33,431 bases of DNA from the IMG/VR virus record IMGVR_UViG_3300035698_024751. One strand, given 5' to 3'. Positions 7,401 through 27,728 of the stretch are shown one piece after another. The notes under the pieces were generated by a model. It was not told where the DNA came from and did no database searches. It saw nothing but the letters and a program-made list of their open reading frames with translations. The stretch's first letter is position 1; every line of letters starts with the position of its first letter. This DNA is from a virus. The position numbers and the translations under genes are program-made.

Positions 7401-7530
7401 CCACAACGATTGCTGTGATCTCTATCAAGATATTTGGTAGAGTGTCGCCAGCATCGTCAGTTATGTAGCCAGAAACCCTGATTGCTGGTTCAGGCGTAGG
7501 TGTTCCAGCTGTGAAAGTCGTCAGTGCCAT
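4462..7530 (-). CDS. Large structural-type protein (1022 aa) with an internal collagen-like segment (GRKGNTGLRGADGIDRLETGPAGDVGVDGSNAP, approx. nt 5915-5995); tail-fibre/baseplate-like by analogy
   Basis: Uninterrupted 3-kb ORF. TAATG overlap with the upstream 665-aa gene. Gly-X-Y run read directly. Confidence 0.8.
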   Translation of the reverse strand: MALTTFTAGTPTPEPAIRVSGYITDDAGDTLPNILIEITAIVVGGQFAVKEWIFTNADGFYEAMIEEGPVTIVPQPTNNLTIVTGTPPTYFYEPEQISYSLIAANRDNLDFVATEYDDSQLEPTGGTENPTEIIEEQRKHWKVEGLPVTIEDVTPPTHGSPPNFTGAIDNEAQLLSDGFHDHLLYFSALSAVKIERINGVSTKADDHIHQVLNGLVQYATSEKYGTHKHAIRSEVGNTIDLLSHSISLEIVVIYHRDGELKFNVTGDPITTGELLDLSRKDHQELIYNHSISGAHQDGSGCDVDKHLEWAEENKIYRLKNGKWVKPDREFYEQFECGPLLSNYGYIGSIHYFMSFTNGVKFFADLGFNISSIGFPADPPHGLIFEIIKGVFFKYDAGTNAWILVSGYDALGLASPQSDGLMANTDYKKLQQLLIPPLRTTITGQDCPITFKSGQVGLYSLDRDLFIEHSLALKGYAIDTEDPWGLHENTAGYSFKINWAQLIEEMVNRGNLTYTQIQGRKGNTGLRGADGIDRLETGPAGDVGVDGSNAPFNISLLPEGSNFEAIDQDILKAIVDINVEKVGPDENYLVATRGYVGDVNACSEFIQPTDLRSPWILAINMDSPNVVRTNTLSPDCAVACKVCTNLYYIDLTTIVNQFNERFLQLLNGMKQEKELLVQSWIKTMSTLFYEQKYALCCALENCRSRTKNQGERRYIESARIAAIQADKSIVVDGLDNRKEYKWDQWKNCTEDEANEDIPIITGPDDCVGCYIEIEVDPLLNAGDENNAVIIDLPAGDYVAQIIQCCPKIVTIGGYQTVQVTIRPPATTKKVKSKVTSIYRGDVTIIYNSFVADIQTDQRIAGPPTEIKFPELGEARYQGGFISEDEAREAYEGITTIFSHSGGDIKFFIDDTTTSDNAGDPIIICINDASCFDDPLENLTAGEDADAIYVFRNEVRSETLIGAIRPFVTSSDPSTFWSLMMAGSAPAGTEAEADTAKVFFTQYDDRLAVFFVNSSETVSACPDG

Positions 7531-9527
7531 TAAGCACCTTCATGAATTCTATAAACTCTTAATTGAATAGGGCCCTGCCCAGACGAACAAAGCATCCCGA
7601 ATGCTGTTGGGTATCCCTGAGTCCATGTGCCAAACCCAAAGCGAATAGCTATCCCTCGCCCTTTTTCCTGTAACGCCGAAACAGCTTCTTCTCCTGTAAG
7701 ATTCAACCCCCCATTGCCAGTAATCTCAATCTCCATAGTTCTCTCAGTCAGTAGTGTTGATTTGTATGCGGCCTCTACCGAAACTTTGTCCATTTTATCG
7801 TAGGCTACAGAAACAGTTGGGAACCATATAGTCCCAGGTGGTTGGTATGAACCACGAGGATAGAGGTTAAGACCAACTGGGACAGCTTCGCTGTCCTGCG
7901 GCCCAATTCTCCACCCAAAAGATGCGTCCCACGGAGCGCTCATGGCCCCACCTACATATTCGAAAATATAAATCCCATCGGGAATCCCTCGCTCCGAGTA
8001 GGCCGCGTCTTTATTTGGATAATACAATGTTTGCGAGGACCTACCAGTGTCAAGGTCTTGACATGGAGACCACCCTGTTACTTCTACTATTCCGAGATCT
8101 TCGCATTGTGGGTCTACATATGGAGAGGACGAGCCATAATATGCTTCGATTATTCCGCTGCAGTTGCCCGGAACCGGGTCCCCCTCACTATGACAATCTC
8201 TCAGGTCCATACAGTATTCTAGTGGCATGTCCCATTCGCATTCAGCAACAGAATTAGCCAAATTAGTTAATAGCTCTCTGGCATTAGCATCTTTCTGCTC
8301 GATAAATTCCCGAACTTGTTTATTCATAGTCGTTTCGGCTTTGGTAAGCTTACTTCGCAAGATTGAACTCATTGAATCTAACACGCTCGACAAATTGGTA
8401 ACATTAAGTTGAGTTTGGTGAATCGAGTTATCTTCAATGTCTCGTGATATTTCAACTCCCTCTGGATAATAGCACACCTCTATGTCAGTTGGTGTTGTAT
8501 CGTTTGCTGCTTTAGAAATCTCATGTGCAAGTTCATTGTCTGTAAATACCATTGATCTCGTGATTGGCTGCACAATTACCTTGCTAGCAGGGAGACCGGA
8601 CGCAGGCGTTCTTACCTTCCCTTTAATAATGTTCAACGTGCCGCCTTCATTGTCTAGCTCCATATCGACAACAGCAGTGTCATAAACCTCATCAACATCT
8701 TGAATTTTAATGCCTGTAAAAACGGATGATGCTACCGCGTCATCTCCAGAATCTCCAGATTCACCTTGCGGCCCATCTCCAGTACCATCAGTGCCAGAAA
8801 GTCCCTTGGGTCCTACATTTCCTTTTAGCCCTTGACATCCTGGCACAACAACACAAAACATCTTAAGGAATTTCTCGCTCATGGTAAAATTAAGCCCTGA
8901 TGGTAATTTGCCTTCTTGGTCTACCCAGTTGGCTCTCGTACACACCTCGATCGGATTGCCGTCTCCATCAACACAAGCAATATCGAGTGACTCACTTAAA
9001 AACTCAATATCACCATGCATAATGCCGCTTGGGTCAAGCTGTGTTGATTCAAAAATTGAAAATTTATTGTCTCTGATATTCTCGAGAATATCCCCCTCAA
9101 CATCAATGAAAGCAGTTCCACTCTCGAATATCAGATATCGCTGGTCTTTATAGGACCCATCATCAAATTGTAAAATCTGACCAGAATGGTCAGCCGCCAA
9201 ACTATCTACAGTAATCCGAGTGCCAGACGGAATCATCTGTGATTTCAACACTACACCTGTGAGAATTGGAGTGGGATTAACTTCAACTAGACTAAGTAAA
9301 GGACGCGTCAAAAGCCCAAAATGCCCGCCCTTGGTCGGGATTCCATCAAGCAATATCTTGTGTCTGGCCGTCAACAATCCAAACTGCTCTTCTGTAGCAG
9401 CAGGAATTTCTGTGGCTCGACCTATTTTACGCCACACCCTGCTCTCTTCATCATATTTCCACCTAATACGATCGTAAGATATAAATATCTGACCATCGAA
9501 AGGCCTCGGAGGAAATGATGTCGCCAT
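7530..9527 (-). CDS. Large structural-type protein (665 aa) with a collagen-like segment (GCQGLKGNVGPKGLSGTDGTGDGPQGESGDSGDD, approx. nt 8755-8865)
   Basis: 2-kb ORF with SD AAAGGATTTAAGATATG. Gly-X-Y run read directly. Confidence 0.8.
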   Translation of the reverse strand: MATSFPPRPFDGQIFISYDRIRWKYDEESRVWRKIGRATEIPAATEEQFGLLTARHKILLDGIPTKGGHFGLLTRPLLSLVEVNPTPILTGVVLKSQMIPSGTRITVDSLAADHSGQILQFDDGSYKDQRYLIFESGTAFIDVEGDILENIRDNKFSIFESTQLDPSGIMHGDIEFLSESLDIACVDGDGNPIEVCTRANWVDQEGKLPSGLNFTMSEKFLKMFCVVVPGCQGLKGNVGPKGLSGTDGTGDGPQGESGDSGDDAVASSVFTGIKIQDVDEVYDTAVVDMELDNEGGTLNIIKGKVRTPASGLPASKVIVQPITRSMVFTDNELAHEISKAANDTTPTDIEVCYYPEGVEISRDIEDNSIHQTQLNVTNLSSVLDSMSSILRSKLTKAETTMNKQVREFIEQKDANARELLTNLANSVAECEWDMPLEYCMDLRDCHSEGDPVPGNCSGIIEAYYGSSSPYVDPQCEDLGIVEVTGWSPCQDLDTGRSSQTLYYPNKDAAYSERGIPDGIYIFEYVGGAMSAPWDASFGWRIGPQDSEAVPVGLNLYPRGSYQPPGTIWFPTVSVAYDKMDKVSVEAAYKSTLLTERTMEIEITGNGGLNLTGEEAVSALQEKGRGIAIRFGFGTWTQGYPTAFGMLCSSGQGPIQLRVYRIHEGA

Positions 9528-13888: not shown

Positions 13889-16396
13889 CTATGAACTGGA
13901 CAATTCAAGCTGTCCGTAAGTATATTCACTGAACCCCTTCACTTGATCTCTGATTTCAATTTCCCTGATTGAAGAACCAGGCCAGAGTCGTAAAGCAACT
14001 TTCCCAACTTCCACATTAGGTACAACTGGGAAGTAAGGCGTATTGACAGCCACACCTGTTGGCAAAGCTGCAGAAAGAGTAGTATCAGGAGGTACTAATA
14101 GTCCATTCCACCATACCCAAAGCTGGCCGTCTTTCAACATGACTTCAAGTACATTCCATTGCTCTGTCGTGCCACCTATTGGCGGACAAAGCGATCCACC
14201 AGTATAGCATCTGAAATCTGCGGGGTCAGATGTTACAACATCGTCAGGACAGTCAGCAAACCCATCTTGAGTGTATATTTTGCTAACAGAAAATGCACCG
14301 GGCCTAAACCCTCGAACGAAGTCGTCTGTCCTAGTAGTTGGCAAGTTAAGTTCGTATGGCTCAGCCATATCCAACAAACCAGCCCTAAACTGGAGTTGAA
14401 CTGCTTCGGCCCCAGTAGTGTCGTTGACAGAGAACTCGGTTCTGAGGCAAATTCCATCGTATTCAGCATGACAAAGGTGAGTCACTGTTGTGTCAGTTGG
14501 AATCCATACGCCATCAGTAGTCAGACCACCCGTATCAAATGGGAATGCAACTGGGCCTATTAGACCCAGGTTAGATTGGAATGCAGATCCACCAAGTGGA
14601 GCAAAGGCAGCTTTATTGAAGTAAGTCCAAGTAACATTTCTGTTGTCGCCCGTTAATATCCTCAAACTTCCAGATGGTGGTAAATCACCCCACTGAACAC
14701 CATCCACAAAGACGCAATGTTGGCCCGTGAAAGGACCTTCACTTAATTGGAACCCCGCAGCCATTCGTACATAAACGTCGTCATAACTATCAGTTGGCGC
14801 ACCGATAAGAACGTCCATTGGCGGGAATTCGCTATCCAGCGGTTGCCCTAGAAGAATTTTCGCATAAACATTCTTGTGATTGGCGCGGTGCCAGACATAG
14901 ATGGGTCTCTCAAACGTGGGCGGCTCCCCAGTAGACCCAGTGATTGTCTCTAAGACTCTAAGGCCTGGAAGACCGTAGTCGATGTCCGCAACAAATTGGT
15001 TGTTAATAGCCACAGCAGATGGCTGTCCTCCAGCCCCATCCCAAATAAACATTCTGTCTTCAAACGTGGTTATGCCCCACATGGTTCTCTCAAACAACCT
15101 AGTATCAGCCACATCGACTATATGACTGGTTAGATCTTCAGTTTCCGTGCTTGCTTCAATCTCCTCGCGCTCAATTAACAAATCACCAAACCTAATCATC
15201 CCACTCAGCGACCAAAGATGATTAGCGTTGACGTTTGGTTTGCAGTTAAAGTATCGTCTCCAGATCCTTGTTTCATTCTGCTCGCCGATGGTGAATTCCC
15301 ACAGTTGTATCAAAGTCCCAAGCCCGAGTATGTCACGAGTGATATCTAAGGTCAACGATTTTGGACTAGTGGGATCTGTAGTTGTGTTCTCTGCGTTCTC
15401 GTAATTCCAAATGTTTGTGGCGGTAAACTCTTCGCCCATCGGGGCGGCGTTTAAAATGTCCCAATACTTGATTTTATACTGATTGGTAGCAAGAACCGTG
15501 CTCGCATAATTAGTTACAACGCCCATGCGCCTTGTTAGTGTATGGCCTTTATAAAGCAACGCTCCCAACATTCCCGCTGGTGACTCGGGCAACAATTCAA
15601 ACGAGACTCGATTGCCTATGTCGTCATTCCCCATGTACCATGTGCATTCGGGAATACCCAAAGGCCCAGGCGTCATATGCCACCCAACCTTAGAGGTGAG
15701 ATTTGTGTCTCGAACCAGAACCATATCAAATTCTGCTTGGCCTGGTTGAATAGAATCGTCATAGCGCTTGAATATGAGCGTTGGGTAATTTCCCTTGGTG
15801 TCGAACGTGCCGCTAGGAACAGCAGGGTCAAAAATTGTGGATTCTGGTAGAAGATATATTTTCATCTCACCATAAATATTAGTCCCAGGCATCTTCCCTG
15901 CACAGGATGGTGGCCTGACAGCTGCGGTATCGCTTTCATCGATAAGCCAATAAATCGACGCGCATTCCTCAAGATTGCAATTCATCGGTAGAGGATTATC
16001 TACAGTAAAACGAATTGTATTGCCGATTCGCTCGAGCGATATGAATTCACTGCCCGCCGCTAAAATAATGTCGCCAGATAGCCACCCTCCATCATCGGGA
16101 AACCCGGCACCTTGAAATCCAAGGATTCCTAATCTCATTTGCAATAAAGCATCCAACTTTGCCTTGTCATCGGCGCTTTCATGGCCTTGCAAATCAGGTG
16201 TGGCCACTGGAACCAAATCGGAAGAAACATGACTCATTCCATGCGATGTAGGTATGATAACCTGTGTGTCGCGCCCATAGAATGCCCCAGTTTCAGCGTC
16301 GTAGAAGAAACCAACCTTTAGGTCATCTGGGCCTTCGATTTCAACATATTGCCTATCGACTACTTGGTTCTTTCTAGGGAGTTTATATAGAGTCAT
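13889..16396 (-). CDS. Large hypothetical protein (835 aa), probably structural
   Basis: 2.5-kb uninterrupted ORF. Confidence 0.8.
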   Translation of the reverse strand: MTLYKLPRKNQVVDRQYVEIEGPDDLKVGFFYDAETGAFYGRDTQVIIPTSHGMSHVSSDLVPVATPDLQGHESADDKAKLDALLQMRLGILGFQGAGFPDDGGWLSGDIILAAGSEFISLERIGNTIRFTVDNPLPMNCNLEECASIYWLIDESDTAAVRPPSCAGKMPGTNIYGEMKIYLLPESTIFDPAVPSGTFDTKGNYPTLIFKRYDDSIQPGQAEFDMVLVRDTNLTSKVGWHMTPGPLGIPECTWYMGNDDIGNRVSFELLPESPAGMLGALLYKGHTLTRRMGVVTNYASTVLATNQYKIKYWDILNAAPMGEEFTATNIWNYENAENTTTDPTSPKSLTLDITRDILGLGTLIQLWEFTIGEQNETRIWRRYFNCKPNVNANHLWSLSGMIRFGDLLIEREEIEASTETEDLTSHIVDVADTRLFERTMWGITTFEDRMFIWDGAGGQPSAVAINNQFVADIDYGLPGLRVLETITGSTGEPPTFERPIYVWHRANHKNVYAKILLGQPLDSEFPPMDVLIGAPTDSYDDVYVRMAAGFQLSEGPFTGQHCVFVDGVQWGDLPPSGSLRILTGDNRNVTWTYFNKAAFAPLGGSAFQSNLGLIGPVAFPFDTGGLTTDGVWIPTDTTVTHLCHAEYDGICLRTEFSVNDTTGAEAVQLQFRAGLLDMAEPYELNLPTTRTDDFVRGFRPGAFSVSKIYTQDGFADCPDDVVTSDPADFRCYTGGSLCPPIGGTTEQWNVLEVMLKDGQLWVWWNGLLVPPDTTLSAALPTGVAVNTPYFPVVPNVEVGKVALRLWPGSSIREIEIRDQVKGFSEYTYGQLELSSS

Positions 16397-16937: not shown

Positions 16938-18044
16938 TCAATAGACCAGAATCCTATCGAGAGTCCTAGGCCTAGTCACAAACGGCACCCTAAAATACCC
17001 ATACGCATCGATAGGCGCCATAAACTTCGATAAAATTATCGCATCTTTCCATCCCACCATTAAAAGCGCACGCTTTCCTAAATTCCTGTACATCATTAAT
17101 CTTTTCTTGGACTCTTCAATACTAAGAGGCATTGTAGCACTTAACATGACAACATCGCATGGCTGCGTGCTAGCAAAAACGCGAGCACCAAGATAATCTG
17201 CGAGGTCCTGCATAGATTTGCTGATGATAGGCGCATGGTATTCAGCCCCCAAAAGATGAGCCGCTATCATTTTAGAAGCAAAATCTTCGGCTAACTCCAC
17301 ATCGTATATTGACTTGACATTCCCAAATATATCCTTAATAATCTCAAAATAGAAAAACGGACTAATATACGAAGGATGAAAACTTCTGTTCTGTCTAATC
17401 GACTTTAATAAATTGAATCTTGTTAAATTGTGGCCGGAGTTTAATATGCTGTCCATGCCACGTCTGAGTATGCGTTTGTTCTGCCAGGCCTCAGTCAATT
17501 GTTGATCTGCTCTCTCATAGAGATCAGGAAAGAAATGCTCGGTTAGGACACGTCCTGGCATGCAGGCTGACCCAAAAGATATAAATGCGTTATAGTAGGT
17601 CTTAGCCATTCGGTGTCGTGGTTTGATAGTTTGGATACGTTCTTTGTCTTTGGCAAGCTTTTCTTCAGAAAATTTGTATTCGAGCCATCCTTCCTCGAGC
17701 AACTGGAGGATTAGTTCATGCACTTTACATCTGATATCACAAAATCCACTAACAGCCAAATCGCGTTGTCGCACCATAAAGTGTGGTTGTATCAACCTGT
17801 CTCGTTCTTTGTCGAAAGGCAGACTTTCGAACTCTTTCAAGACAGGAATTGGGTTGCCAAATAATTGTGGTAGCTGCGGCAATTTTAGCTGGTAGTAATT
17901 CCTGCGTCGCCCGCCGAAATCCCATCGTTCTACTAAGCCGCTCTTGAAATATACGGTAATCGCTTTCTGACCAACGGCGATATCACCAATAATATCGGCT
18001 TTGGCAACCTTATTCCCGATTAATTTAGCTGTTAATTTATCCAA
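16938..18044 (-). CDS. Hypothetical protein (368 aa)
   Basis: Long ORF. Its start overlaps the stop of the HTH gene. Confidence 0.7.
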   Translation of the reverse strand: MDKLTAKLIGNKVAKADIIGDIAVGQKAITVYFKSGLVERWDFGGRRRNYYQLKLPQLPQLFGNPIPVLKEFESLPFDKERDRLIQPHFMVRQRDLAVSGFCDIRCKVHELILQLLEEGWLEYKFSEEKLAKDKERIQTIKPRHRMAKTYYNAFISFGSACMPGRVLTEHFFPDLYERADQQLTEAWQNKRILRRGMDSILNSGHNLTRFNLLKSIRQNRSFHPSYISPFFYFEIIKDIFGNVKSIYDVELAEDFASKMIAAHLLGAEYHAPIISKSMQDLADYLGARVFASTQPCDVVMLSATMPLSIEESKKRLMMYRNLGKRALLMVGWKDAIILSKFMAPIDAYGYFRVPFVTRPRTLDRILVY

Positions 18045-18411
18045 GGCTTGGCCTGGGTGTTATGTTGTATTTCTTAAGTCTTTTCTCTACTATTCGAATT
18101 GGCCTGTCAATCATCTTAGCCAACGTTACAATACCTTTTTTGCGATTGATGTACATTTCCTTGAACCACTCCTGGTTATCCCAGTCTTCACTTACTTTCT
18201 CCACGTTGCTATATGTGGCCCGTTTCCATTCCTTGCCCGCAAATTTATATTTCCAATACCAGATAGTGCTCAAGCTTTTCTTAAGTAGCGTTGCTAGTTC
18301 TCCGTTGGTAAGAAAATCATAATCTTTAAAGAATTTCTTTAGAGACTCCGGATCCTCAGTGTTTACGATTGCGGGATCTATTAGATCAAATTCGACGCCT
18401 TCTATTTTCAT
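18037..18411 (-). CDS. Small helix-turn-helix-like DNA-binding protein (124 aa)
   Basis: Segments GELATLLKKSLSTIWYW and KKGIVTLAKMIDRPIRIVEKRLKK look HTH-like. A purine-rich tract (AAGAGGAAGAGAA) immediately upstream serves as the SD. Confidence 0.55.
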   Translation of the reverse strand: MKIEGVEFDLIDPAIVNTEDPESLKKFFKDYDFLTNGELATLLKKSLSTIWYWKYKFAGKEWKRATYSNVEKVSEDWDNQEWFKEMYINRKKGIVTLAKMIDRPIRIVEKRLKKYNITPRPSLG

Positions 18412-18680
18412 TTCTCTTCCTCTTTCTCTTTCTCTTTCTTCTCTCTAAACATTCGTTCGGCACTGGCATTTCGCATTTTGGATACGTTGTAGGATCTATA
18501 TATCTTCTCTGATCCTCTGATTTTCCTGAGGAACAGCAGAACCCTGTCTCTACCAGATTCTTTATAAATTCCTTCAAGTAGTGGTTTATGAGTCTTAAGT
18601 TGTCTTTCTATATGATTATTTATCTTTATGCAGGCGCATAATGGGTTGCCCGTAGAGTCCTTGACATACTTATCAATCAT
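18408..18680 (-). CDS. Hypothetical small protein (90 aa) with a C-terminal KEKEKEEEK tail encoded by the CT microsatellite
   Basis: ATGA overlap with the downstream gene. Preferred over the alternative frame 18386..18577. Confidence 0.5.
   Translation of the reverse strand: MIDKYVKDSTGNPLCACIKINNHIERQLKTHKPLLEGIYKESGRDRVLLFLRKIRGSEKIYRSYNVSKMRNASAERMFREKKEKEKEEEK
18411..18447. repeat. CT-rich hexanucleotide microsatellite (ctcttt)n
   Basis: Direct reading tttctcttcctctttctctttctctttcttctctct. Confidence 0.8.
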
Positions 18681-18813: not shown

Positions 18814-19173
18814 CTATTTTTGAGCCGCCACTTCCTTCTTGGGGTAAGAAAAAGCTAGATCGTTGGTGGTGATCTCGTCGATGGGGTCGTATTTGAGCAT
18901 AAACCGAGGAAATTCCACAAGTGCCTTGTTATTCGAATTTACGAATTCGAAAATAACCTCTAATAAATCTGGGTCCGCAAGATTTACACTTCCGTCTACG
19001 TACCCATCAAATGCCAAAGAATATTCTCTACCATTTTCAAACCTAAGTGACCCAAGGTATGTCTTCTTAGCATTGTAAAAGTGGGCCGCATCCTCAGTGG
19101 TCCTATAAGATATAGAGAATTTGCGCTTGATTCTCTTGGCCAGATCTTTTAATATAAGCTTTTTGAGTTCCAC
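18814..19173 (-). CDS. Hypothetical protein (119 aa), probable GTG start
   Basis: ORF. The codon at 19171-19173 is GTG with GGAG 6 nt upstream. Confidence 0.5.
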   Translation of the reverse strand: MELKKLILKDLAKRIKRKFSISYRTTEDAAHFYNAKKTYLGSLRFENGREYSLAFDGYVDGSVNLADPDLLEVIFEFVNSNNKALVEFPRFMLKYDPIDEITTNDLAFSYPKKEVAAQK

Positions 19174-20171
19174 AACATCTCCATGATAGCATCAAATGAT
19201 TCATGCTCGAGCGATTCAAACACTCCGCCTGCTTCCTTTACAGGCTTGCCCTGCGCAAAATCTGTGATATCATCAATCCTAAAATCTCTTCTAAAGAAGA
19301 TGCCTTGCTTAGTGCTTTGAATGTATTTTCTGAAGTTCAGTTTCCCACTTTTGCCAGCAAGTTCGGGGTCAATCATGAAGTTCCTGACTGCGTCGTCCCA
19401 TGCCATTGTTACATCTCTGCCGCTCATCGGGATCCTTATTTGATCTCGCAAGATATAGAAACCTTTGGCAACGTCAGGGGAAAATAACATCACCGCCTTT
19501 TGATACTTGCCCGACTTCGACTTTAAGACTATATAATTCTGAAATTTTGGTAAATTTCCCACTTCTGAGGAATCCACCAACCCCTGGTCTTCTAACTCGC
19601 CGATCTTCTCTCTAAGCTCTATCAACCACCGGCTAGCTTCGCCACCACCTTCCCGCTCTCCAGCTACCGGAAGTTGAATCGCCTGCCTAATTTTTACCGG
19701 CAGCGGCATGTAGAGCAATTTCGAGACAGGTATGTCGCCCATGTTTTGTTGAGTAACTTTAGTAACGGCTATGCTACCTACTTGCTGGTCTCGTACGGCT
19801 CTCTCTCCCTCGCTGGCGATACTCCACGGCAAAACCTGGCTAACATTGCGATTAAACCAAGCAGGTCTACCATGAATTTCTAGTTCTCCAGTTAGACTAG
19901 TTAACCAACTTATAGCGGTCCACACTCTGCTGCCGTCCCGCTCAGCTGCCTTGCCATAAAGAAATAACGGCAAATAGATGCTAGCTCCCCCTATCCGCTC
20001 GACGATAGATTGGTTAATTCGGGTTGTTTCTCTAAGTTGGTCTTGATTTATGGTAATGGCTTTCTCTTTACCAAAGGTATCCTTAGTTTCCCAGTCTTTT
20101 GGAGATATGTTTAACGTATAAGTCTCCGCAAGCAGATTCTCAAAAACTGTGTCTAACCGTTTGCTCAGCAT
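19149..20171 (-). CDS. Hypothetical protein (340 aa)
   Basis: Long ORF upstream of the adenosine deaminase gene. Confidence 0.7.
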   Translation of the reverse strand: MLSKRLDTVFENLLAETYTLNISPKDWETKDTFGKEKAITINQDQLRETTRINQSIVERIGGASIYLPLFLYGKAAERDGSRVWTAISWLTSLTGELEIHGRPAWFNRNVSQVLPWSIASEGERAVRDQQVGSIAVTKVTQQNMGDIPVSKLLYMPLPVKIRQAIQLPVAGEREGGGEASRWLIELREKIGELEDQGLVDSSEVGNLPKFQNYIVLKSKSGKYQKAVMLFSPDVAKGFYILRDQIRIPMSGRDVTMAWDDAVRNFMIDPELAGKSGKLNFRKYIQSTKQGIFFRRDFRIDDITDFAQGKPVKEAGGVFESLEHESFDAIMEMLWNSKSLY

Positions 20172-20208: not shown

Positions 20209-21231
20209 TTATCTTTGAATCCTTGATGCTAGTCCGCCCTTAAGCATTCCCGACGATCTCGTCGATGGGCTACTGGCAAAGCCAAGAGCTTCAGTTACGG
20301 CATTTTCTCGTAACTTTTCTTCTTCTTGTTGAGTCAATTTCAAAACCTCTCTGGCCAGTTTATATTCCTGGTCCAGCGTGTTTTCCAATATCACTGGGTC
20401 GTCAGTGCCTATAGATATCGTACATCCATTGTCAATCATTGCTCTTGCCGGATGTGTCTCTAGATCCGGCACTACTCCTGTTTTTAAGTTCGAAGTTAAA
20501 CAGATCTCGAAAGAAACCCCATGATCATTGGCCAATTTCATAATGTCCGGATCATCTTTGACTATTTTGATTCCGTGGCCTATCCTATTCACACGCAGAA
20601 TTGTTATCGCTTCCCGAACATTAGAGGCAGCTTGCGATTCCCCAGCATGAGCCAAAACACCTTTTCCAGACAAACGCCAATATCGGCATATTGGTTTATA
20701 AAAATAAGAATCAAAGTAAGTTTCATCGCCTACCAAATCGATTCCAACCAATCTCTCTGCTATTTGCCAGGTATCAATAAGCTTGGCCATGCGCTTCTGC
20801 TCCACCTTGGGCGCTTCATATTTCAGCGACAAGACTAGCCCAATAGTTATCCCATATTTAGAGGCGTAATGATTAAACCGATCGGCCAAAAACAGCGTAG
20901 CTTCTCTCTCGTTCCACGGCAGATGATGAAGATATTTGTTAATAGAAAATCGCATCTCTGTATAGTCAATGCCCTCCGCCTTAAGAGATTTGACAATGTC
21001 CTTTATTGTCAGATCTATTGCGTCTTCGGTCCAACGAATATGGTTGAGTATCTCGAATTTGTTTAAGAACTTCTGAAAATTATATTCGCTGGTTCCCTGG
21101 AACGTCATTAACTGTTTCACCTTGTCTAGGCTGGTAGCGACGGTCTGTTGTTTATCTTTCTGGAGGATTTCCCATACGGTCCGAGTTGGGATCGAACCCC
21201 CCATATGCCTGTGGAGATCTACAACAATCAT
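20209..21231 (-). CDS. add: Adenosine deaminase (Add/ADA family, amidohydrolase fold), 340 aa
   Basis: N-terminal metal-binding HxH block VDLHRHMGGSIPTRTVWEIL (cf. E. coli Add DIHRHLDGNIRPQTILEL). HAGE block LAHAGESQAASNVREAI...RIGHGIKIV...EICLTSNL. C-terminal SIGTDDP block (cf. SINTDDP). SD AAAGGAGCACACATG. Confidence 0.85.
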   Translation of the reverse strand: MIVVDLHRHMGGSIPTRTVWEILQKDKQQTVATSLDKVKQLMTFQGTSEYNFQKFLNKFEILNHIRWTEDAIDLTIKDIVKSLKAEGIDYTEMRFSINKYLHHLPWNEREATLFLADRFNHYASKYGITIGLVLSLKYEAPKVEQKRMAKLIDTWQIAERLVGIDLVGDETYFDSYFYKPICRYWRLSGKGVLAHAGESQAASNVREAITILRVNRIGHGIKIVKDDPDIMKLANDHGVSFEICLTSNLKTGVVPDLETHPARAMIDNGCTISIGTDDPVILENTLDQEYKLAREVLKLTQQEEEKLRENAVTEALGFASSPSTRSSGMLKGGLASRIQR

Positions 21232-21313
21232 GTGTGCTCCTTTCTACTTTTTAAATACGAAAGCAAAATAGGAGGATTAAGAACGATTTATGAATCTAAA
21301 ATCTTAAGATTGA

Positions 21314-25266: not shown

Positions 25267-25404
25267 CTAAACCCTTATTGTTGAGGAGCCATTGCAAACA
25301 TGACAAAAATGCCATATCTTAGCATCGGGCCCAACAGTCGCATTCTCTACAATGCTAGTTTCATGGACAAAAGATTCATTGCTGACCCATTTGTTTGTGG
25401 CCAT
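25267..25404 (-). pseudogene. Truncated remnant (45 aa) of a hexapeptide-repeat (left-handed beta-helix) acyltransferase of the LpxA/sugar N-acetyltransferase family
   Basis: Translation MATNKWVSNESFVHETSIVENATVGPDAKIWHFCHVCNGSSTIRV*. The segment ESFVHETSIVENATVGPDAKIWHFCHV parallels the LpxA N-terminus [28 protein letters not shown]. Stops after 45 codons, with no continuation in other frames. Overlaps the 3' end of the methyltransferase gene. Confidence 0.35.
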
Positions 25405-25921
25405 TAGCTATCTCCAATAAATAAGCATTGCCGATGCTTGTAACTGATCCTCTTGATGATAACTCTTCCACTGTCCAACTTGATATGTGTGATTCATACT
25501 CATTTCCATTCAAGGGCCCTTGATTGGAAACTATCACGGGAGTAATGACAGCAGCATAATTCGATTTTTGAGCGATCAGGTCAAGAAAATTAATCCCATC
25601 ATCTTTCGCAAGATGCTCAAGAATATCAGATGCGATTATGAGGTCATATGTTTGCAAAGTTGGTAAGATATCTATGGCATTCCCAATATAAATATTGTCG
25701 TAGATTTTATATTGTAAGTCAGTTATGTATTTCTTGAAAATTTCAACACCATCAATACGGGTCGTCCATTTAAATGGACGACCCCACCAGATGTCTGTAT
25801 ATTCTCTGGCAAGAAATCCAAATTTTCCGAATCCTACTCCAATGTCTAAAACAGACATTGGTCTTAGTGCGATGATTTTGTTGCAAATGTGAGGTAAAAA
25901 TTGAGGTCTAGACGATGGCAT
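25376..25921 (-). CDS. Class I SAM-dependent methyltransferase (181 aa)
   Basis: Glycine-rich SAM-binding motif LDIGVGFGKFG followed by acidic residues at beta-2/beta-4 positions (IASDILEH). Overlaps the glycosyltransferase gene start by 14 nt. Confidence 0.8.
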   Translation of the reverse strand: MPSSRPQFLPHICNKIIALRPMSVLDIGVGFGKFGFLAREYTDIWWGRPFKWTTRIDGVEIFKKYITDLQYKIYDNIYIGNAIDILPTLQTYDLIIASDILEHLAKDDGINFLDLIAQKSNYAAVITPVIVSNQGPLNGNEYESHISSWTVEELSSRGSVTSIGNAYLLEIANGHKQMGQQ

Positions 25922-27728
25922 TTAAACAGCTCCCCCACAATAGCCATGGCTTTACTCTGTTGACCGAAGCAGTCTGCTCGGTATCGTTTCCTACATTTTT
26001 CGCAAATATCGTTTGGCTGTGATCAACCAAGGTCGAATGTCTAATCCATCCTTGGCGGTGAGACACCACAATCATCGGAATATGTTGTTTCTGAGCCTGC
26101 AGTCCAAACCAAATATCCGCAGAATTAGGTGATTCAAAATCTTTTAAGGTTAGCCCTAACACGCTCGTGTGGAATGCCATTACTCCTGTGCCAAGAAGAT
26201 GCACAGGTGTTTCCATTGCTACGTGGCCTAAGCAGGGGAAAAAATAGCGATCATAATAGTAATTATTGACTTCTTTCTTTAGTATAACTCCGTGCGCTCC
26301 AACAACTGCAGCTTTATTATAACGCTCCACAACTTGTATCATTTTCGACACATAATCTTGTGGGTAAATCAAGTCGTCATCACATGAAAGATAATAACCA
26401 TTTGCATCTTCTATGGTAAAGAATTTTCCAACATCTCCAAGGTCTCCTGCGTGATCTTTTGATAAATATGCCGTAATCTTCTCATCATCCAGAAAATCAG
26501 GTATTTCTTCATAGCCGTTAAGATATACATGAATCTTATCGACCTGGCCTTTTAATGACGCGATTGTATCTTGTAGTGCTTTTTTACGACTAGGAATAGA
26601 TGCGATACCAACAATCACTGGATCAACACGGATCTGATTTTCAACACAAGAAACCCAGTACTCAATATTGGTCTTAAGTCTTTTCTTTTGATTCAAAGGT
26701 ATGCCTTTGGATAGCGCAACCAAACCAGCCTTCAAGGCATGGTCATGATCTCCAAGCCTGTGATAAGCCATTGCTAAGCGGTCCCACGCCGCCCAACCAT
26801 AACTTGCTTCATCAAGAAACACAAATTCTGTAGGCTTCTCAACTATAGTTGAGAATTTTGCCCACATCATTGCTTTGGTTAAATCTTCATCTCTTGTGTA
26901 TAAATCAGACAAGAATATCATCGTTTCAGCTCTAACACTTTCCCCGAGAGCAGCCAAAGCAAATCCAATGGCTTTTGACCTGTCTCTACTAGATTCAGCC
27001 ATTCTCGCTAGTATCATTTGAGCTTCCCAGCGTTCTGGTTTCCATTTGGCAATGTTTAGATAATCTTGGAGTTCTGTTGTCGCTTCATCGTTCCTTCCAT
27101 TTTCCCACAATGTTTTGCCAAGATAAAATCTCGATCTAGTGTCTGTTGGATTTTCCACAACTTTTTGTTTTAATATTTCTACTCCCATCAAAGCTCTTTG
27201 TTTGCTTCTTTTGTTGCGCAGCTCTACATCTTGACCTGTCCTGTCATGGATGATCTTTACTCCATCCATAGTTAAGGTTTGTCGCAAATCAACATTTAAT
27301 ATGTTGTGGACATCATTTTTCCATCTAAACTGTTTGCGTGACACTCTCACCTGCGGAACAATAGCCCCAGAAAAATGTAACGGAATCCGCACACCTTGAA
27401 TGCCATCAGATAGTGAAAAGAGATACTCGCGAACATCATTTTCACATTCAATATATTCATGCCCATCGAGATGCAGTATCCAATCCCCTGAGCACCTTTC
27501 AACCGATCTATTCCTAGCGTCGGCGAAACTACCATGAGGCTTATCGTTATTTTCAAAATCAAATTCGAAACAGATATCAGCAAGCTCACGCGCCAATTTC
27601 AGCGTGTCATCTTCAGATTTTCTGTCGACGCCAATAACAATCTCATCAACAAGATTGCGAGCACTCTCAATCGTTTTTGATAGAGTGCTCGCTTCATTTT
27701 TAACAATCATCGCTAAGCTAAGTTTCAT
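25908..27728 (-). CDS. Multidomain glycosyltransferase (606 aa): N-terminal GT2 (GT-A) domain, central TPR repeats, C-terminal second GT-A-like domain with a DDD (DxD) motif
   Basis: N-terminus MIVKNEASTLSKTIESARNLVDEIVIGVDRKSEDDT...HLDGHE is typical of GT2. TPR-like helices RFYLGKTLWENGRNDEATTELQDYLNIAKW.... C-terminal SCDDDLIYPQDY in a Rossmann-like context. Confidence 0.8.
   Translation of the reverse strand: MKLSLAMIVKNEASTLSKTIESARNLVDEIVIGVDRKSEDDTLKLARELADICFEFDFENNDKPHGSFADARNRSVERCSGDWILHLDGHEYIECENDVREYLFSLSDGIQGVRIPLHFSGAIVPQVRVSRKQFRWKNDVHNILNVDLRQTLTMDGVKIIHDRTGQDVELRNKRSKQRALMGVEILKQKVVENPTDTRSRFYLGKTLWENGRNDEATTELQDYLNIAKWKPERWEAQMILARMAESSRDRSKAIGFALAALGESVRAETMIFLSDLYTRDEDLTKAMMWAKFSTIVEKPTEFVFLDEASYGWAAWDRLAMAYHRLGDHDHALKAGLVALSKGIPLNQKKRLKTNIEYWVSCVENQIRVDPVIVGIASIPSRKKALQDTIASLKGQVDKIHVYLNGYEEIPDFLDDEKITAYLSKDHAGDLGDVGKFFTIEDANGYYLSCDDDLIYPQDYVSKMIQVVERYNKAAVVGAHGVILKKEVNNYYYDRYFFPCLGHVAMETPVHLLGTGVMAFHTSVLGLTLKDFESPNSADIWFGLQAQKQHIPMIVVSHRQGWIRHSTLVDHSQTIFAKNVGNDTEQTASVNRVKPWLLWGSCLNAIV

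Follow-up and report, generated by a model that had tools for sequence, protein, structure and literature searches.

The virus record IMGVR_UViG_3300035698_024751 from IMG/VR, a stretch of DNA of 33,431 nucleotides that is called the window here at its full length, carries a gene for a small stand-alone zinc deaminase of the adenosine deaminase (ADA) superfamily. The analysis showed that this gene belongs to a phage-restricted and previously uncatalogued ADA subfamily, that it is not a recent capture from a host, and that the subfamily has been passed on vertically, as a near-core gene, within a single broad lineage of huge tailed phages that are uncultivated. Residue comparisons also showed that the predicted sugar-binding pocket has been changed in the same way as in nucleotide-specific relatives. 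The reading that we prefer, and to which we give about an even chance as a composite, is that this near-core phage enzyme would deaminate 5'-phosphorylated adenosine for remodelling of the purine pool. The enzyme class is known, as are phage enzymes that act on nucleotide pools; what is new is a coherent phage-specific ADA subfamily with a Cad1-like substitution that is found nearly lineage-wide. The gene and its diagnostic positions are as follows.

20209..21231, minus strand: ADA-superfamily zinc deaminase gene of the phage "type A" subfamily, ATG start, 340 amino acids (aa)
21237..21243, minus strand: Shine-Dalgarno sequence AAAGGAG, 5 nucleotides (nt) upstream of the ADA ATG, read from the sequence
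21196..21213, minus strand: codons for H7-R-H9-M-G11-G12, with two zinc ligands and the Gly at the position of mouse ADA Asp19, placed by alignments
20932..20946, minus strand: codons for S96-I-N-K99-Y100 (the FSINKY motif), in the shortened loop after strand beta-2
20638..20649, minus strand: codons for H195-A-G-E198, the third zinc ligand and the catalytic Glu
20575..20577, minus strand: codon for H219, the equivalent of the catalytic His238 of mouse ADA
20398..20403, minus strand: codons for D277-D278, the counterparts of mouse D295 (a zinc ligand) and D296 (which binds N7 of adenine)

The window gene encodes an intact, catalytically complete zinc deaminase of the ADA superfamily that is predicted to be active. 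Its product matched the Pfam A_deaminase family (PF00962) with an E-value of 2e-49 and 168.9 bits (the gathering cut-off is 27 bits), and residues 4-315 aligned with model positions 3-313 of 330. The initial annotation had named three signature blocks of zinc-dependent adenosine deaminases (HxH, HAGE...H and SxxTDDP), and both the Pfam match and an alignment with mouse ADA bore this out; in the protein the blocks read DLH7RH9MGG, AH195AGE198S with RIGH219G, and SIGTD277D278P. Loss of catalytic residues, which the same annotation had listed as grounds for abandoning the assignment, was not seen, as H7, H9, H195, E198, H219, D277 and D278 aligned with mouse ADA H15, H17, H214, E217, H238, D295 and D296. 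These seven residues are unchanged in every sequence that covers them in a family alignment of 147 sequences (median pairwise identity 41%), 15 of which do not include the N-terminal H7/H9 region. A sequence search of the PDB returned solved bacterial and mammalian adenosine deaminases at E-values of 2e-29 to 1e-25. An AlphaFold2 model built with 41 homologues as input had a mean predicted local distance difference test (pLDDT) score of 92.8, with a disordered, low-confidence and non-conserved C-terminal tail made up of the last 20 residues (320-340). The best Foldseek match of this model in the PDB was Vibrio cholerae Add (6n91; TM 0.85, 28% identity, E 5e-22), and among the 123 PDB matches at E <= 0.001 the best 50 listed were all ADA-family structures. 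A 41-residue motif query had no match in the PDB, and an exact-sequence look-up of the ADA protein found no record.

Assignment to the Add family, as first proposed, held at the level of the superfamily, where PF00962 and the fold both place the protein, but not at the level of orthologues because identity to enterobacterial Add is just 23-28%. The score against the NCBIfam Add equivalog model TIGR01430 was 185.9 bits, below the cut-off of 216.55, the score was far under the cut-offs of all PRK09358 sub-models, and Gly stands in the place of Asp19. In a neighbour-joining tree, 70 family members were clearly apart from all five reference ADAs (mouse ADA, human ADAL, Vibrio Add, an Enterococcus Add and an actinobacterial homologue). 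Identity between a family member and a reference ADA was never above 28%, compared with 32% between mouse ADA and Vibrio Add.

The closest relatives of the window ADA were more than 140 metagenomic proteins of about 320 aa that are 40-54% identical to it. All contexts of these closest homologues that were examined were phage-like, with HNH, LAGLIDADG, RF-1, PTH2, Cpn10, Mom, PhoH and Tail_P2_I genes, and the contigs that encode them reach 177-408 kb. An alignment-based scan of IMG/VR placed the family on 22 viral contigs of 33-408 kb; the alignment query was required, as a scan with the window ADA as a single sequence gave no match. When 185,579 prokaryotic species genomes (one for each species) were scanned for the family motifs FSINKY and LKYES, they were found on just two 5.6-kb contigs from metagenome-assembled genomes, one of which has four neighbour gene families in common with the phage loci. 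The TIGR01430 score, this genome scan and the neighbour-joining tree all argue against a recent passenger insertion of a host add gene, which had been raised with the first assignment. That assignment had also described a stand-alone ADA in a virus as unusual, and this is so for catalogued viruses: PHROGs gave a marginal match only, BFVD held no ADA-like viral structure (top match TM 0.56), and GenBank phage records gave only 7 distant matches. The idea that the family is already present in GenBank phages was rejected after two of these seven matches were examined, as one was a canonical Add with an HxHLDG motif (UNVERIFIED_ORG record) and the other a high-GC sequence (UNVERIFIED record). Full-text literature searches found no description of a phage ADA family. 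At present the family is missing from phage protein catalogues, and its members would be mis-annotated as host add.

Near-core status was assessed with a second protein encoded in the window, which was used as a marker of the lineage.

13889..16396, minus strand: 835-aa protein, lineage marker, tail-fibre-like with an N-terminal GLMSADDKAKLD motif

This protein has no match in Pfam, PHROG or the PDB. It is 38-63% identical over about 30 huge-phage contigs and has many invariant Cys, Trp and Gly residues. A search with the marker retrieved 30 IMG/VR contigs, and an ADA-family gene was present in 27 of them; 17 of these were already in the ADA set and 10 were newly found in the flanks. Pairwise ADA identity was correlated with pairwise marker identity (Pearson 0.59, p 2e-5), as vertical inheritance predicts. 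The ADA class found in the window, type A, was defined here by the motifs HxHx[G/A/S]G, S-x-x-K-[YF], LKYE and GTDDP in a protein of about 320 aa encoded on huge-phage contigs with the 835-aa marker, and the window ADA has all of these features. The HxHx[G/A/S]G and S-x-x-K-[Y/F] motifs are found both in the window form and in the divergent forms designated A'.

A different class, type B, was found on four contigs of the lineage.

L046, 8893-9939: type B ADA gene
L047, 470-1474: type B ADA gene
L048, 8913-9896: type B ADA gene
L050, 8830-9843: type B ADA gene

Type B proteins have HQHxDG, RYSP and TDN motifs, retain Asp19, and are 34-37% identical to Enterococcus Add but only 24-27% identical to the window protein. 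The three that were scored against TIGR01430 (L046, L048 and L050) exceeded its cut-off with 216.9-227.6 bits. Type B genes lie directly beside the marker gene on the opposite strand, in the same neighbourhood, running from the pair of syntenic genes Y and Z (described below) to the marker, as in type A relatives. The presence of type A or type B at one place is suggestive of replacement of one ADA class by the other in situ, and the finding of one class or the other in the same neighbourhood suggests that the lineage needs this chemistry.

The substrate inference rests on the sugar side of the pocket. Of 133 family sequences, 130 have Gly at G11, the position of mouse Asp19, and the position is Gly, Ala or Ser in essentially all sequences when type A and A' are taken together. 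Compared with mouse ADA, the loop after strand beta-2 has lost four residues, and K99 and Y100 in it are near-invariant in the family; strand beta-3 is followed by an LKYES motif. The carboxylate of Asp19 in mouse ADA makes hydrogen bonds to both the 5'- and the 3'-hydroxyl of adenosine (PMC12669630). TaqCad1, which deaminates ATP and not adenosine, has Gly264 at this position in contact with ATP, and its N549D/G264D double mutant, like N549D alone, no longer deaminates ATP, though it should be noted that G264D is known only in the double mutant (PMC12669630). Arabidopsis MAPDA holds the 5'-phosphate of N6-methyl-AMP through Asn17 (at the Asp19 position), Thr98 and a salt bridge to Lys100 in an equivalent shortened loop (PMC6451127). 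Residues S352, N355 and Y356 of TaqCAAD contact phosphate and ribose (PMC12993439), and these could be the counterparts of S96, K99 and Y100, a match made by residue spacing from the HxH motif only and with no alignment. KomA of the Kongming system, a small PF00962 enzyme, prefers dAMP (bioRxiv 10.1101/2024.12.20.629578).

Profile comparisons also agree with a nucleotide substrate. When a profile of the N-terminal half of the family was compared with the PDB, the nucleotide-specific human ADAL was the best match (1.3e-9, compared with 4e-8 for mouse ADA and 3e-6 for Vibrio Add), and the PADLOC CARF_ADA model matched the window ADA with an E-value of 2.4e-28 over residues 4-315 (model positions 261-579 of 605). 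Together, the change of Asp19 to Gly and the fixed Lys-Tyr pair suggest that the preferred substrate is probably an adenosine with a 5' anionic group (of the dAMP, AMP or ATP type) and not free adenosine, with K99 and Y100 as putative residues lining the 5' pocket. A more specific proposal, that K99 and K137 replace Leu106 and Met155 of mouse ADA, was dropped because a MAFFT alignment puts K137 opposite Arg156 and K99 inside the shortened loop.

The mechanism can be proposed from the conserved residues and the ADA paradigm. As a hydrolytic deaminase with a (beta/alpha)8 fold and a mononuclear zinc site, the enzyme would hold a zinc-bound water through H7, H9, H195 and D277, while D278 and the backbone of G168 would hold the adenine ring. 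E198 would protonate N1 and H219 would act as the base, so that the C6 amino group of adenine would be converted to the C6 carbonyl of hypoxanthine with release of ammonia. During infection, adenine (deoxy)nucleosides or nucleotides would then be drained into the pool of inosine and inosine monophosphate (IMP). One possible gain for the phage would be the recycling of host-derived purines towards guanine nucleotides, and another would be the avoidance of a dATP build-up, which would shut down ribonucleotide reductase. A phage enzyme that re-balances the pool released from host nucleic acids is known in the T4-type dCMP deaminase, though this is an analogy of function only, as that enzyme has the unrelated fold of the cytidine deaminase superfamily and acts on a pyrimidine.

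Several observations weigh against an enzyme for 5'-phosphorylated adenosine. The solved structures nearest to the window ADA, both in whole-length sequence and in fold, are those of nucleoside-specific Add/ADA1 and not of ADAL or Cad1, and the base-side motifs (HxGE and TDDP) are ADA-like rather than ADAL-like. Next to the ADA gene in the window there is no gene for IMP dehydrogenase, GMP synthase, ribonucleotide reductase or a nucleotide kinase, and thymidylate kinase and NUDIX genes are near the ADA gene in only a few relatives. The type B genes place a canonical Asp19-bearing Add in the same neighbourhood in four related phages, and if types A and B are interchangeable then plain (deoxy)adenosine may be the substrate. 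The sequence and fold matches, the ADA-type motifs and the type B genes favor an ordinary adenosine/deoxyadenosine deaminase (EC 3.5.4.4) that would act in purine nucleoside salvage as an auxiliary metabolic gene, with the Asp19 to Gly change and the K-Y pair as lineage drift. The phage enzyme and Add/ADA1 (TIGR01430; PDB 6n91 and 1a4l) have in common the (beta/alpha)8 fold (TM 0.82-0.85), the single-zinc site of three His and one Asp, the catalytic Glu, His and Asp, the FLxKF lid helix, the GDE strand and a similar length of about 330 aa with no extra domains, and all base-binding and catalytic residues are of the ADA type. However, the phage enzyme has 23-28% identity to Add/ADA1, Gly for Asp19, a shorter beta-2 loop with K-Y, and LKYES, and type A is encoded by phages whereas Add/ADA1 is encoded by cells. 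Asp19 makes both ribose hydrogen bonds in ADA, and its loss together with K99 and Y100 that are fixed at about 40% identity is a pattern more like selection for a different pocket than like drift. The score of the window protein under every Add equivalog cut-off, and the case of Cad1, which has the same Gly and is without adenosine activity (PMC12669630), also count against salvage of plain nucleosides, which we consider possible but clearly the less probable reading.

The resemblance to Cad1/CAAD (PDB 9c67 and 9ebt) allows two further readings, in which type A would act on adenine-based messengers. According to one of these, which we regard as unlikely, type A would be a stand-alone nucleotide deaminase with constitutive activity, in effect the deaminase domain of Cad1 in free form, that destroys adenine-based immune messengers or controls ATP/dATP pools while the phage takes over its host. 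According to the other, which is a counter-defence role and which we hold to be slightly more doubtful again, the enzyme would deaminate an adenine-based immune signal or its precursor, such as the cyclic oligoadenylates (cOA) of type III CRISPR systems or of cyclic-oligonucleotide-based anti-phage signalling systems (CBASS), ADP-ribose-derived Thoeris signals, or the ATP/dATP pools used by cyclases. ADA-family enzymes that act on cyclic nucleotides do exist, the cAMP deaminase CadD of Leptospira being one. A Gly at the Asp19 position drops the 5'-/3'-OH contacts, as entry of 3',5'-linked nucleotides would require, the window ADA is related in sequence to the deaminase domain of Cad1 over its full length, and near-universal retention in a huge-phage lineage fits an important function in infection. 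The Gly and the Ser...Tyr pattern after beta-2, which is reported to touch phosphate and ribose in TaqCAAD and was matched by numbering only, are held in common with Cad1. However, the window ADA is about 340 aa long compared with about 600 aa and has no CARF domain (by Pfam, and by PADLOC, which matches the deaminase part only), and hexamer formation and activation by cOA cannot apply to it. At the D296 position it has Asp, which is Asn in TaqCad1, its sequence similarity to Cad1 in the PDB is lower than that to Add (E 6e-10 across just 140 residues), and there is no type III CRISPR context in the window, where no cas genes were found among the open reading frames (ORFs). A counter-defence role is also opposed by the absence of a sensor or regulatory domain and of recognisable sponge or nuclease anti-defence genes nearby, by literature searches that found no precedent for a phage deaminase acting on immune signals, and by the canonical Add that seems to replace type A in four relatives, which is hard to square with signal destruction.

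An effector of a bacterial defence system, also suggested by the initial annotation, found no support, since no CARF, RdrA, HAM1 (PF01725) or SIR2 (PF13289) partner was matched among the window ORFs tested. KomA is likewise a small stand-alone PF00962 deaminase, a likeness taken from its description only, but it works together with KomB (HAM1) and KomC (SIR2), and the three genes form one operon in bacterial defence islands. RdrB of RADAR is several hundred residues longer than the 340-aa window ADA and is paired with the ATPase RdrA; for RADAR there was no PADLOC match in the window and no AAA ATPase neighbour of the ADA gene.

A role in modification or sanitation of DNA or nucleotides was also considered, in which the enzyme would remove dATP/dAMP in favor of a non-canonical purine, act on N6-modified nucleotides in the manner of MAPDA, or clear S-adenosylhomocysteine or 5'-deoxyadenosine left by enzymes that depend on S-adenosylmethionine (SAM) or are of the radical-SAM type. 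The closeness of the N-terminal half to ADAL agrees with this, and one homologue was auto-annotated as an aminodeoxyfutalosine deaminase, an enzyme with a 5'-substituted adenosine as its substrate. Of 22 loci scanned, 5-6 have SAM methyltransferases and two have radical-SAM genes at no more than 3.5 kb from the ADA gene, and one has a Mom-like gene within 10 kb, though the co-occurrence with methyltransferases is weak evidence because these are common in phages. MAPDA/ADAL (PDB 6ijn and 8qch) also resembles the phage enzyme in having a non-acidic residue for Asp19 (Asn in MAPDA, Gly here) and a shortened beta-2 loop with a basic residue by a conserved Ser/Thr, which binds the 5'-phosphate in MAPDA. 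However, identity is about 20%, and the MAPDA/ADAL motifs HxHLNGS, HxSE and CTDD(K/F)GVF correspond to HRHMGGS, HAGES and GTDDP in the phage enzyme, and the N6-methyl-sensing residues of MAPDA and its HxSE and CTDDxGVF motifs are not common to both. No PurZ, DatZ or other genome-modification genes were seen among the window ORFs. This reading is very improbable in our judgement, and deamination of 5'-phosphorylated adenosine is the one that we retain.

ADA-fold enzymes have recently emerged in RADAR, Cad1 and Kongming as bacterial anti-phage weapons that work by poisoning or signalling via inosine nucleotides. Here the same fold is found on the side of the phage, near-core in a lineage with genomes of 100-400 kb and with a pocket change that is common to an ATP-specific defence enzyme. 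If type A acts on nucleotides, it would be the purine counterpart of the classic phage dCMP deaminase, and such a compact and unregulated enzyme may be of use in studying or manipulating nucleotide pools. If it is a plain adenosine deaminase, it marks out purine salvage, or protection from toxic dATP levels, as something that these phages have a conserved need for. If it is a free Cad1-like deaminase, it would represent a new class of counter-defence or host-takeover enzyme that works by base editing of small-molecule nucleotides.

The genes between the ADA gene and the 835-aa marker were examined as possible partners.

19149..20171, minus strand: 340-aa ORFan directly downstream of the ADA gene, with a good Shine-Dalgarno sequence
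18408..18680, minus strand: 90-aa ORF with a marginal positional match to the "X" family (hmmsearch E 0.006, about 100 window ORFs)
18037..18411, minus strand: "Y", 124 aa, helix-turn-helix-like, syntenic with the ADA gene
16938..18044, minus strand: "Z", 368 aa, syntenic with the ADA gene

The 340-aa and 368-aa proteins had been suggested as partners of the deaminase, and neither suggestion held. The 340-aa protein gave no homologue in a word-indexed search of 5.8 billion proteins or in related loci, has no match in Pfam, PHROG, NCBIfam or PADLOC, and is not conserved beside the ADA gene; it is a lineage-specific insertion between the ADA gene and the conserved downstream genes and not a conserved partner. 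The X family comes next after the ADA gene in related phages. Synteny was counted over 27 non-redundant sources (the window and 26 loci), and the families common to the window and related loci were the Y-Z pair (12 of 27), the 835-aa protein (10), X (10), a 584-aa protein (9) and a 355-aa protein (5). The window genes for Y and Z have an overlap of 8 nt, and in other phages the two are fused into single proteins of 550-570 aa (L007:11900-13573; L026:14775-16433). The 368-aa protein Z is thus syntenic, but it appears to be conserved backbone rather than part of a functional module, as many ADA loci have no Z within 10 kb and Z travels with structural genes; no functional tie to the deaminase was found.

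A word-indexed search of the 5.8 billion proteins gave no homologue of Z, and a full HMMER search gave 123 representatives, none with an informative domain. A single-sequence AlphaFold model of Z had a pLDDT of 34.6. The C-terminal domain of Z has a degenerate VlD..P..G.KA.A...Y motif, which hhalign aligned to SAM-methyltransferase motif I with a probability of 15.6%. Assignment of Z as a Rossmann-fold methyltransferase was not adopted, given this low probability, a METTL5 match at an E-value of 0.09, and a window copy without the Pro and Gly of motif I. Sequence and profile searches of the PDB with the conserved 835-aa, 584-aa and 355-aa proteins gave nothing usable.

The wider window agrees with the description of a virus-like gene cluster, with tail-fibre-like genes, tRNAs and relatives in IMG/VR contigs. 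Essentially all of the substantial, credible ORFs lie on the minus strand, and every 1-kb bin has a negative GC skew, which is consistent with one long co-directional transcription and replication block. The tRNA genes, a weak tail-fibre match for a 665-aa protein at 7530..9527, the tail-fibre-like motif of the 835-aa protein, a glycosyltransferase of family 2 (GT2) joined to TPR repeats, a small methyltransferase and the near absence of Pfam/PHROG matches elsewhere indicate a tailed phage that uses a bacterial-type translation signal. When 23 kb of the window was compared with GenBank phages by megablast, no match was found. The two tRNA genes, both on the minus strand, are a tRNA-Ser (anticodon CGA) at 31567..31642 and a tRNA-Met (anticodon CAT) at 33281..33354.

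The GT2 glycosyltransferase-TPR fusion (606 aa) is followed by a small SAM-methyltransferase-like protein (181 aa), and together they occupy 25376..27728 on the minus strand. In related loci, genes for a GDP-mannose 4,6-dehydratase/epimerase (7 loci) and for SAM methyltransferases (5-6 loci) recur near the ADA gene. Together these genes suggest a sugar-nucleotide pathway in the lineage. A sister subclade has a gene arrangement around the ADA gene that is unlike that of the window, with a winged-helix protein of about 120 aa that is Rrf2-like and a protein of about 100 aa directly upstream, and a SAM methyltransferase of about 265 aa about 1 kb downstream; this is kept in 5-7 loci (L004:9342-9707, L009:9612-9989, L010:9304-9657, L012:9327-9707 and others).

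The window also encodes an 817-aa homologue of the eukaryotic Major Vault Protein (MVP) at 28469..30922 on the minus strand, with Pfam matches to MVP_shoulder (2.6e-24), Vault_3 (1.5e-12) and Vault_2 (1.6e-4). The 30 related loci have no MVP homologue at 10 kb or less from the 835-aa marker, and the sole report of viral MVPs found in the literature is a 2023 preprint (bioRxiv 10.1101/2023.11.10.566534) on two gut phages. A gene for a 257-aa protein (31920..32693, minus strand) that matches Pfam DUF7873 strongly, with an E-value of 3e-50, lies between the MVP homologue and the tRNA genes.

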